Positions 1,031-33,547 of a stretch of 64,000 nt of DNA are shown one piece after another (position 1 is the stretch's first letter; each line of letters starts with the position of its first letter). The stretch is from Eledone cirrhosa (Eukaryota): NCBI GenBank assembly GCA_964016885.1, contig OZ024741.1:312666001-312730000 (forward strand), given 5' to 3'. The notes under the pieces are model-generated. The model was not told the DNA's origin. It saw only the letters and a program-made list of their open reading frames with translations, and made no database searches. The translations under genes were made by a program, and so were the position numbers.

Positions 1031-1773
1031 ATTACAATTTAAAAAAATATGATCAACACTAATGTGTTTTTGCAAAGTAACAATAATTTTTTAGCCAGAT
1101 AGAAATACCTTAATTCAAGTACATATAGTCCGCCTGTATCGATCTAGAGCATATTAAATCTATACTTACAGACGTAAAATGGCAACTGCCTGGTGCCTAG
1201 ACAAGTTTAAATTTCAAAATTCAAACCTCTTCAGCAGATCGGGCGGAACTTCAAAGCACAACCCTGTTTCACAAGGGATGGTAAACTAATGAAATAATTA
1301 ATTAATTACAGAACAACTATTTATAAAATAATTATTAGTGAAGTAATGAATTTTATGTGATTTTCAATAGCACCCAGAAATTATAGTTATTTCTCCTAAG
1401 ATAATAATCTTAAGACTGATCTGTCGCAAGCCTAATACATGTGCTTTTGCACACGACCTTCTCAGCATTCTGGCTCATATCCATGGCGCTAGAAATAACA
1501 GCCGTAAATATGGGATTATAAATTCAGCTCTACCTAAGGAGCAGATTTATTTCAATTCAGAAGTCAAATACAATTCTTAAGCTCTAAGAAAATATTTCTG
1601 AACATTACATTACAATTTAAAAAAATATGATCAACACTAATGTGTTTTTGCAAAATGACAATAATTTTTTAGCCAGATAGAAATACCTTAATTCAAGAAC
1701 ATATAGTCCGCCTGTATCGATCTAGAAAATATTAAATATTAAATCTATACTTACAGATCTAAAATGGCAACTG
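1031..1773 (-). repeat. Tandem non-coding repeat family A (578-bp unit, ~1.3 copies), bounded by (TA)n
   Basis: ATTACAATTTAAAAAAATATGATCAACAC at 1031 and 1609; colinear similarity to family B at 10774-12361. Confidence 0.85.
1192..1374 (-). ncRNA. Expanded type I hammerhead ribozyme with U3-A8 core (family A)
   Basis: Minus strand GGTGCTA-TTGAAAA-tCA...TGt-GAAA-C[long imperfect hairpin]G-TC-TAGGCACC; same layout as family B. Confidence 0.65.
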
Positions 1774-2209
1774 TATATATATATATATATATATATATAT
1801 ATGTATACATATGTATATATATATATATGTATATATATGTATATATATATATATATATATATATATATGTATATATATTTATATATATATATGTATATAT
1901 ATGTATATACATGTATATATATATATATGTATATATATGTAAATATATATATATATATACATATGTATATATATGTATATATATATATACATATGTATAT
2001 ATATGTATATATATATACATACATATGTAGATATATGTAAATATATATATATATATATACATATATGTATATATATATATATATATATATACATATATAT
2101 AAAAACAAATAACTCTATGCAAATTAGTCTGCCCACTACTAATTTTCATAGAAAAAGCATATAATGATATGTGCTTTTACGATTCTCTAGAGAGGCCGGA
2201 AGATAGGTA

Positions 2210-2254
2210 AATATTGCTGATGAGTTGTAACAACAACGAAACTAGTTCAATATT
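2210..2254 (+). ncRNA. Minimal type I hammerhead ribozyme
   Basis: AATATTG-CTGATGA-GTTGT-aaca-ACAAC-GAAA-CTAG-TT-CAATATT: 7-bp stem I, perfect core; lies in a ~370-bp island between (TA)n arrays. Confidence 0.9.
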
Positions 2255-2504
2255 CCTTGTCTGGCTTTCTGGAGAATAGAGGAAAGGTGTTTCCTCAAAA
2301 ACCAGTATGACTCTAAAAGCCGGTTTGTCTGTGTGTTTACATACAGAATAGCTGGCCACTCACAGTAAAGTGACCAGTGAAAAAACTTGGTACATCTACA
2401 TATGTATACGTGTGTGTATTCATATACATACTAGTATTTCAGTATACATATATGGATGTACATCTTTAACTTAATTATATATATATATATATATATATAT
2501 ATAT

Positions 2505-31541: not shown

Positions 31542-31778
31542 CAATAATGTTTTGAACAGTTCTTTGATTCTTATATTTCATATAACTGCTCTGTAAATCA
31601 TCTGATGTTTTTACATTGAGCTACTTAACTTACTGGTAATAAGGTAGTAATACAATACTGCCTACCACTATTTAGGGTGTGTGTAAAATACTTACAACTG
31701 CTTAAGGTTTTGTATTTACATAACCATAAATAGTATAACTAATACTATATATATATATATATATATATATATATAGAA

Positions 31779-32860
31779 GTGGTTACACAGCAGTTAGTTC
31801 ACTATACCGAGAACAATTGTTTCACCTTAGCGGATCCTCAGCTCTTAATGGGCATGGTTATACGGAGCAGGAAGGAAAACCGTACGAACGCGCATGCGCA
31901 GAAATCCGTCACTTCAAACAGGCAATACGAAAATGCGTGCCGGAGGTGTAAGGGACATAACTGCGAAAGTCCGAAAAGTTTTTAGTTGATAAGAAAAAAA
32001 TATTGATGTTGTTAAAATAATTCATTCAATCCGGAGCTTTGTAGTTATGCAGTAGGTGTTTCGAGACGTGTGGACAACGTGTTAAAAATTCATTACTCGT
32101 GTTCAGGCAATCACTATTTCATAATCCCTTTAAAATATTTATTCGTTCGTCAATACACAGTCCACACGACGGATTTCCTCTTGCGTACGGCTTGGACTTA
32201 GTGATGGTTTTCCATTGAATGAAGTAGTCTATACTTGAGACCTCGTAGGACTATACGTGGCTCGCGAGTTTCGTGGATGAACGTCTGTCCGTGTACCTAA
32301 AGTTCGACTGATGGTTCAGGAAACGTTCCTTAAATCGGCTTTCCGCCATGCCCACATAGGATTTGACGTCTTGTGGTTGGTTTGGTCGATTGGAAGTGAC
32401 CAGAGCTTCATAAATTACAGCTGGTGTGTTGCATTGTTGTTGAAGGGGGAAAGCTTCGGGCTTACGGCAAGAGCACCCTGGTGGGGTGTTGCTCATAGGG
32501 TTGCTGGTAATGTTGGCCTTCATAACTACAAAGCTCCGGATTGAATGAATTATTGTAACAACATAAATATTTTTTCTTATCAACTAAAAACTTTACGGAC
32601 TCTAGCAGTTACCTCCCTTACACCTCTCGCACGCATTTTATTATTGCCTGTGTGAATTGACTGGCTTCTGCGCATGCGCGTTCGTACGGTTGTCCTTCCT
32701 GTTCCGTATAACCATGCCCATTACGAGCTGAGGATCCAATAAGGGGAAACAATTATTCTCGGTATGGTGACCTAACTGTTGTGTAACCACTGCTACCTAA
32801 CTCGTCCCATGGACTGAGTGCTCTACCACTACGGATATTACCTTCCAGTGTGCTACCACT
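31779..32860 (-). mobile_element. Penelope-like element PLE3: GIY-YIG fragment between inverted pseudo-LTRs; HHRs at 31809-31844 (-) and 32724-32761 (+)
   Basis: CSCRKP...C...VIYEALV...YVGMAESRFKERFLNH; arms 31779-32053 and 32518-32790; GAG-CTGAGGA-tCC-gctaa-GGt-GAAA-CAATTG-TT-CTC. Confidence 0.87.
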
Positions 32861-32907
32861 ATATATATATATATATATATATATAAATGTATATATATAA
32901 ATGTATA

Positions 32908-33547
32908 TATAGTATATTTTGCAGTACACTGTATGCTTAATTAAAAGCATTTCGAAGACCTTACGCTATTGTTTTAGAGTAGTGATAGTCTCACTAACTT
33001 TAAATTTTCCGCAAAAAGGGGAGATAAAGCTGACAGAGCTCTGTTTCGTACTGATTGGTACTTATCAAAGCCAAGTACTTCACCTGTTTGTTGAAAATCA
33101 TGAATGTTTGATTCTTATAGAATTCTAGTAATAATCAGGAACTGATTATACAGAGCGGTTGCCGGTGGGGCAGAAATTGGAAATTAGAATTGGTGCTCTG
33201 AAATAGCGATATATATATATTCTAATTTTCAATTTCTGCCCGACCGGCAGCCGCTCTGTATAGTCAGTTCCTGATTATTACTAGGATTCTATAAGAATCA
33301 AACATTTATGATTTTCAGCAAACAGGTAGAGTACTTGGCTTTGATAAGTACCAATCAGTACGAAACAGAGCTCTGTCAGCTTTATCTCCCCTTTTTGCGG
33401 AAAATTTAAAGTTAGTGAGACTGTCACTACTCTAAAACAATAGCGTAAGGTCTTCGAAATGCTTTTAATTAAGCATACAGTGTATTGCAAAATACACTAT
33501 ATATACTTTCATATAAATATTGCTATTTCAGAGCACCAATTCTAATA
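32908..33547. repeat. Family H: two inverted, circularly permuted copies of a 320-bp unit
   Basis: 32908-33190 is the reverse complement of 33219-33501; ATTCTAAT recurs at 33219 and 33539. Confidence 0.9.
33337..33381 (+). ncRNA. Type I HHR with U3-A8 core (family H; second copy 33028-33072, minus strand)
   Basis: GGCT-TTGATAA-GTAC-caatca-GTAC-GAAA-CAGAGCTCTG-TC-AGCT, identical in both arms. Confidence 0.85.

Follow-up and report, generated by a model that had tools for sequence, protein, structure and literature searches.

The base pair between positions 3 and 8 of the hammerhead ribozyme core appears, from comparisons of closely related repeat families, to have changed repeatedly from C-G to U-A or back in the genome of Eledone cirrhosa, and the swap, judged from the sequences, seems to be real, inherited and recurrent, without being strict. 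In the active hammerhead core, a tertiary Watson-Crick pair joins positions 3 and 8. Since C3 and G8 are the bases that pair in the active core (PMC3884650), a U-A pair is expected to preserve the pair geometry. The U3-A8 swap is already published for Penelope-like elements (PLEs), and the present genome provides a rich example of it and not a new kind. The window referred to below is the whole stretch of 64,000 nucleotides analysed, which consists of AT-rich DNA rich in microsatellites and short repeats.

Sequence searches and sampling

A background sample of 1,000,000 bases was assembled from 100 stretches of 10 kb picked regardless of hammerheads, of which 10 adjoin the window and 90 are evenly spaced over six contigs. 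The structure scan of these 1,000,000 bases gave 172 matches with a score of at least 25 (146 C3-G8, 13 U3-A8, 5 U3-G8, 4 C3-A8 and 4 other), the C3-G8 number being inflated by tandem arrays and families A and B being missed by the scanner. The same scan of the reversed control gave 8 matches, with neither U3-A8 nor C3-G8 among them, and hammerhead motifs exceed chance. When combined with folding, the scanner detects other copies of A and B but not those of the window, and chance matches are added (16 in the control at a score of at least 24).

The family tallies were obtained with genome-wide patterns in which positions 3 and 8 were left free, and the states were counted by eye among the 100 matches listed for each family, which may be a biased sample; the totals are lower bounds. 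Pattern width matters, a narrower version of the pattern for family F having given 7 matches against at least 2,922, so that patterns can undercount; a DNA search with F gave no match. Searches restricted to C3-G8 and short loops would overlook roughly ten thousand motifs in this genome, as extrapolated from the 100 matches listed in each of six patterns.

Hammerhead motifs in the window

Six U3-A8 motifs were found in the window by motif and structure scans, one belonging to family A, two to B, one to F and two to H; the four cores given in a preliminary description of this DNA were all found by scans and folding to be correct in their 7-mers and positions. The core boxes of the type I hammerhead are all present and in order (N3-UGA-N-N8-A, GAA-A15.1 and U16.1-H17), with U3-A8 replacing C3-G8, and the structure scan and constrained folding place three helices round the core with an open stem I, as predicted for type I hammerhead folds in all four families.

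The A hammerhead, located by constrained folding at 1192 to 1375 on the minus strand (core UUGAAAA; position 3 at 1367, position 8 at 1362, G12 at 1270 and C17 at 1200), has a stem II region of 90 nt, a stem III hairpin of 67 nt and GUC at the cleavage site. One nucleotide is deleted from its stem I, mismatches occur in its stem III, and its constrained hammerhead fold is computed at -28.2 kcal/mol against -38.5 kcal/mol for the MFE. It lies in a unit of about 590 nt to which a short, repeated terminal piece is joined (1032 to 1620, minus strand), the whole being flanked by (TA)n runs. The two B hammerheads are found on the minus strand at 10996 to 11173 (UUGAUAA at 11165, C17 at 11004, one mismatch in stem I) and at 11550 to 11726 (U3-A8 core UUGAUAA at 11718, C17 at 11558), within units that have a period of about 554 nt and start at 10768. 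The second copy, with a stem I of 8 bp and a stem III of 67 nt, has a computed constrained fold of -35.7 against an MFE of -39.2 kcal/mol, and an inverted, 5'-truncated copy on the plus strand (12091 to 12218) retains stem III and GUC without the CUGA-box. A reading of A and B with a second GAAA, lying within the hairpin, and the whole insert in stem II was abandoned on the evidence of folding; CUGAAGA at 1234, a candidate for the A core, falls within stem III and is conserved neither in B nor in most A copies.

The F hammerhead (17305 to 17400, plus strand; UUGAGAA at 17310, C17 at 17395, GUC) has a stem I of 5 bp, a stem II region of 56 nt and a stem III in which 6 bp close a palindromic loop; it is trailed by (TA)n at 17493 and forms the terminus of a PLE assigned to the Hydra clade. 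Fragments of the F 3' end without the CUGA-box are arranged head-to-head at 20565 to 20684, with another at 45179. The two H hammerheads form an inverted arm on the minus strand (33028 to 33072; UUGAUAA at 33068, C17 at 33032) and a direct arm on the plus strand (33337 to 33381; UUGAUAA at 33341, C17 at 33377), each with a 4-bp stem II and with a perfect 12-nt palindrome as stem III, the self-duplex of which is computed at -20.1 kcal/mol against -1.8 kcal/mol for the monomer hairpin. A and B are related, as had been proposed, with 66.5% over 197 nt (E 3e-8), and F and H gave no nucleotide match at E<=0.01 to A or B or to each other.

All six U3-A8 motifs carry GUC at the cleavage site, and their stem III region (A15.1 to U16.1) measures 67-68 nt in A and B, 19 nt in F and 12 nt in H; the stem II region of A and B is 83-90 nt long. 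Stem III is 6-10 nt long in those C3-G8 motifs of the window that the scanner listed and 8 nt long in another four; their endings are GUA, GUU, AUA, AUU, CUA or CUU. In the window copies the hammerhead fold lies 3.5-10.3 kcal/mol above the MFE, and A and B have a weakly closed stem II, which is absent from the constrained MFE of their window copies. Helix covariation was observed in stem I across A, B and the sister family B2, where pairing is kept, and in stem II both between H and its sister H2 and within a further family, M. Among the 150 of 276 Rfam matches listed for the window, the sole hammerhead match is to HH9 at 2199-2270, a C3-G8 motif, with a sub-gathering score, and the matches are mostly to miRNA models driven by microsatellites.

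Two C3-G8 comparators from the window were considered. A PLE frame of 912 codons with RT and a GIY-YIG-type end (6325 to 9063, minus strand) has C3-G8 hammerheads in its pLTRs, at 6118 on the minus and 10015 on the plus strand, and a C3-G8 hammerhead with C4 (CCGAAGA) and an 8-nt palindromic stem III is present at 31495 to 31540 (plus strand), five copies of which were collected. C4 together with C3-G8 (CCGAAGA or CCGAUGA) was seen at 31499 (plus) in the window, in loci L212 and L015 and in cluster 33, in families that are unrelated. It is found also in a reverted subfamily of A and is thus a second core variant that recurs.

Core states of the families in the genome

U3-A8 is an inherited family state and not single-copy decay, in agreement with the initial view of these motifs: H (at least 383 matches) and B (at least 425 matches) have U3-A8 in all 100 matches listed for each, two of those of B with C4. 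For A, with at least 162 matches, the 100 listed comprise 59 U3-A8, 39 C3-G8 (36 with C4), one C3-A8 and one A3-A8, so that 98 are Watson-Crick at positions 3 and 8, in two states. K is the commonest U3-A8 family, with at least 6,498 matches, a 6-nt stem III, GUA and U3-A8 in all 100 matches listed, and clusters 12 and 24 are further small U3-A8 families with GUC.

The claim that positions 3 and 8 always change together holds in the window and fails in the genome. F has at least 2,922 matches, and among the 100 listed are 63 U3-A8, 34 C3-A8 (32 with G7), 2 U3-G8 and 1 U3-C8, with no C3-G8. M, a family with long stems and GUC, has at least 2,138 matches, the 100 listed being divided into 74 U3-A8, 22 U3-G8 and 4 C3-A8, again with no C3-G8. 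The M pattern left both positions open, yet position 3 is a pyrimidine and position 8 a purine in every one of these 100 M matches, position 7 being any of the four bases, and U3 is present in 96 of them, spanning deep branches.

Several further features of these families were observed. M copies (L217:215, L104:3010 on the minus strand, L169:2987 on the minus strand and L306-L335) have a stem II of 8 bp with one extra A on each side, a stem II region of about 77 nt and a stem III of 30-90 nt; in L217, L104 and L169 the predicted hammerhead fold is the MFE or nearly so. M offers the best candidates for an assay. Copies of K (L236:3920, L173 and L188) are near-identical minimal motifs, often in inverted pairs about 100 nt apart, and the family looks young. 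A subgroup of B with U replacing A9 (L095, L107 and L113) accounts for 6 of about 32-33 B copies, tandem copies included. G7 is present in 37 of the 39 C3-A8 matches listed for F, M and A, hence C3 might pair with G7, a weak hint as G7 is also the commonest base in the background.

Switches between sister families

Compensatory swaps between close relatives, which had been suspected from the window, were recovered in three sister pairs, namely the two states of A, H and H2, and B and B2. H2 matches H at 74.7% over about 290 nt with compensatory changes in stem II; its pattern, in which C3 was fixed, gave at least 591 matches, with G8 in 95 of the 100 listed. B2, of which one copy is available (L005), has a canonical core and a 66-nt stem III. 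In a tree of 36 A, B and B2 copies (at most 8 per core type), built with the core excluded, the ten A copies with C3-G8 group as a single clade (99/96) inside the U3-A8 copies, and the 3-8 state changes twice; because of this nesting, the change from U3-A8 to C3-G8 in A is read as a reversion. When this clade is compared with its closest U3-A8 subfamily (18 versus 8 copies), 16 out of about 570 sites show fixed differences, three of which are core positions 3, 4 and 8, the chance of hitting both 3 and 8 being 7e-4, and the reversion brought C4 with it. Recombination as the origin of the C3-G8 core of A is disfavoured, the differences being evenly spread (8 upstream and 5 downstream). As both states occur within three sister pairs, the earlier suggestion that U3-A8 marks one lineage is not supported at the nucleotide level.

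Mixed states were also placed on trees. In the F tree, limited to the 34 of 60 copies with enough upstream sequence, five C3-A8 copies share a clade with the window copy, and the C3-A8 copies likewise flank ORFs. In the M tree of 36 copies, from which a false pattern match (L068) was removed and in which L299, apparently the same locus, was kept, A and G replace each other at position 8 four to five times, and two-sided changes occur in stem II.

Cleavage triplet and stem III

U3 tends to be linked to GUC and a long stem III. GUC was found in 6 of 7 lineages with U3 and in 3 of the 22 families with C3-G8 (Fisher p=0.001), a stem III of at least 10 nt in 6 of 7 and 5 of 22, respectively (p=0.006), and A17 in 1 of 7 and 12 of 22 (p=0.09), in a lineage table that was entered by hand from families not independent of one another and that excludes clusters 20, 27, 29, 30 and 35 (likely chance), singletons, B2 and the reverted A subfamily. 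The association of GUC and a longer stem III with U3-A8, noted initially for the window, therefore holds there and as a tendency but not as a rule: K has 6 nt and GUA, and the C3-G8 sisters keep GUC, the A subfamily and B2 together with the long stem III. As G17 is thought to be inhibitory through pairing with C3 (PMC3884650), A17 should mispair with U3, which may be the reason for C17; K, with GUA and U3-A8, suggests that avoidance of such a mispair is not absolute.

Carrier elements

F, by its match to the published description of the clade, is assigned as a Hydra-clade PLE. Its ORF (a 710-codon frame in L278) is single, with RT, a C-terminal GIY-YIG, DKT and a CxCX5C linker; the hammerhead lies in the terminal repeat, about 1.0-1.3 kb past the stop of the PLE frame in most loci with both, with (TA)n insertion and an inverted or tandem layout. 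A, B and H lie within (TA)n as non-coding units of 450-600 nt that are partly repeated in tandem and have a truncated copy in inverted orientation and a short tail, a layout that resembles the PLE-type insertion pattern and suggests non-autonomous derivatives. No consistent upstream ORF was found for A, B and H in the loci examined, and no autonomous partner or RT clade could be assigned to A, B, H, M, J or K, Hydra-like ORFs adjoining many families; the single ORF link checked for M was not common to other M copies. Hydra-like PLE frames are very frequent in the genome loci, in many diverged families with 28-52% identity to the frame of F.

Mechanism and alternative explanations

We consider it fairly probable that these states represent a constrained Y3/R8 pair, which transitions cause to drift in ribozymes that are attenuated but probably functional. 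The ribozymes are predicted to cleave themselves after GUC at the ends of PLEs and their short derivatives, and the 3-8 pair would behave as helix pairs do, two transitions taking it by way of a tolerated U-G or C-A. Slow but real cleavage could divide tandem or read-through transcripts into units, with H and K acting as dimers (H via its palindrome), A, B and M as monomers and F either way. Selection may hold Y3 and R8 and yet be weak, slower states still spreading, and the weaker pair would settle most often where stem III is stable and C17 is present. Przybilski and Hammann 2007 reportedly found tolerance to be context-dependent and one ribozyme to prefer Y3-R8. U3-A8 is described as active in vitro in the available text of PMC3088659, citing its ref. 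32, and when pairs of mutations were scanned in a type III hammerhead, rescue came from the C-G to G-C swap alone, all other double mutants there being low (PMC9901934). Catalytic mutants of an anole PLE hammerhead left in vitro insertion unaffected (PMC11167929), and since PLE insertion in vitro needed no cleavage, selection on rate may be weak, letting intermediates spread. The type III scan and the anole mutants speak against drift of a constrained pair, and so do further points: C3-A8 makes up a third of the listed F matches, so the mismatch did not block spread; transitions are the commonest mutations and alone favour Y3/R8; and the predicted hammerhead fold of the window copies is not the MFE.

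Rather unlikely, in our estimate, is a selection that favours a weaker core (U3-A8, U3-G8, C3-A8 or C4) in ribozymes which have GUC and a long stem III and fold well by themselves, and the purpose that might be ascribed to it, that some transcript is left uncut for reverse transcription, is equally doubtful. The association of U3 with GUC (p=0.001) and with a stem III of at least 10 nt (p=0.006) agrees with such selection, as do the C4 gained in the reversion of A, U4C lowering activity according to the accessible part of PMC3088659, and U3 in 96 of the 100 listed M matches across deep branches, with no C3-G8 among them. However, K (at least 6,498 matches) has U3-A8 despite a 6-nt stem III and GUA, B2 combines a canonical core with a 66-nt stem III, and the families are non-independent; inclusion of B2 and of the reverted A subfamily would weaken the Fisher table. 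The C3-A8 state of about one-third of the F matches listed and the common U3-G8 in M could also be taken to mean that cleavage is irrelevant, that the fold is kept for RT or protein recognition and that positions 3 and 8 are subject to mutation-biased drift on master copies; the 9 of 32 B copies without the usual core 7-mer or partly with U9 (6 with U9) and the in vitro insertion that can do without cleavage (PMC11167929) point the same way. We regard such relaxation as improbable, as positions 3 and 8 changed in concert on a very short branch in A, three sister pairs are Watson-Crick on both sides, and the 100 listed M matches have no purine 3 or pyrimidine 8 though position 7 is free.

That U3-A8 is the mark of a single PLE lineage (e.g. 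the Hydra clade), its C3-G8 relatives all being reversions, is highly improbable: at least three reversions (A, B2 and H2) would be required, Cercyon PLEs of Schistosoma mansoni also carry U3-A8 in the portion of PMC4209133 available, and A, B, H, M, J and K have no assignable autonomous partners. In its favour are the Hydra-clade identity of F and the direction from U3-A8 to C3-G8 in A, and deep kinship may be masked by fast-evolving flanks. Beyond the drift of a constrained Y3/R8 pair preferred here, we would give only a small chance to the wider proposal that the genome records the path of a catalytic tertiary pair, in which C-G, U-G, U-A and C-A have all been amplified with forward and reverse swaps, weaker cores are favoured with long stem III and C17, and C3-A8 may be a C3-G7 register.

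Comparison with known hammerheads

The same 3-8 covariation was reported by Cervera and De la Pena 2014 in the PLE hammerheads of S. mansoni, where, in the available sections of the paper, about 1,300 matches with U3-A8 stand against about 2,000 with the usual core (PMC4209133), so that the rarity ascribed to U3-A8 is not supported. The Cercyon PLEs of S. mansoni have type I hammerheads in pLTRs, and both UUGAUAA and UUGAAAA occur in the accessible alignment, in which S. japonicum is represented by a sequence of similar appearance that has C3-G8 (PMC4209133). Unlike the minimal hammerheads of Cercyon, as presented there, several families here have a long stem III and stem II inserts of 55-90 nt, and U3-G8 and C3-A8 subfamilies and the reversion, counted here, are unreported in the available part of that paper. 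The literature searched contained no account of 3-8 mismatches or wobbles in PLE hammerheads, of subfamilies amplified with U3-G8 or C3-A8, or of a reversion, and further papers on core variants are possible.

The natural variants of Perreault et al. 2011 include the U3-A8 covariation, U4C and a U10.1-U11.1 mismatch as in A, whereas U3-A8 is called rare and family histories are absent in the text available (PMC3088659). F shares DKT, CxCX5C, the GIY-YIG-type C-terminus, (TA)n and a hammerhead with the Hydra-clade PLEs of Craig et al. 2021, the core sequence of the Hydra hammerheads being undescribed in the portion at hand (10.1101/2021.04.23.441226). A and B resemble the animal non-LTR retrozymes in being non-coding tandem units with one type I hammerhead each, as far as the accessible descriptions go (PMC7229834; 10.64898/2026.07.22.740005), and differ in their units of 550-600 nt, in the PLE-type arrangement of dimers or trimers with an inverted copy and a tail, and in their non-canonical hammerhead. 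The fungal and protist PLE hammerheads with a large helix III, in the part of PMC4209133 available, share the long stem III and predicted monomeric fold of A, B and M, but here the host is an animal and the core has U3.

The genome supplies natural sister pairs (U3-A8 versus C3-G8/C4 in A, H versus H2, B versus B2, U3-A8 versus C3-A8 in F and U3-A8 versus U3-G8 in M) which allow measuring how much cleavage a PLE needs, a question raised by the finding that cleavage is dispensable for insertion in vitro.

Other repeats in the window

Other repeats were observed in the window. A LINE-type frame of 897 codons with endonuclease and RT domains is present at 2889-5582 on the minus strand. Three identical tandem units of 422 nt at 14246-15536, each with a minimal C3-G8 hammerhead on the minus strand, face an inverted copy at 13635 and look retrozyme-like. 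An abundant SINE-like repeat of 190 nt occurs at 13151-13340 and in about ten other places, and a tandem repeat of 60 nt, in which several frames are open, extends from 50956 to 52358.
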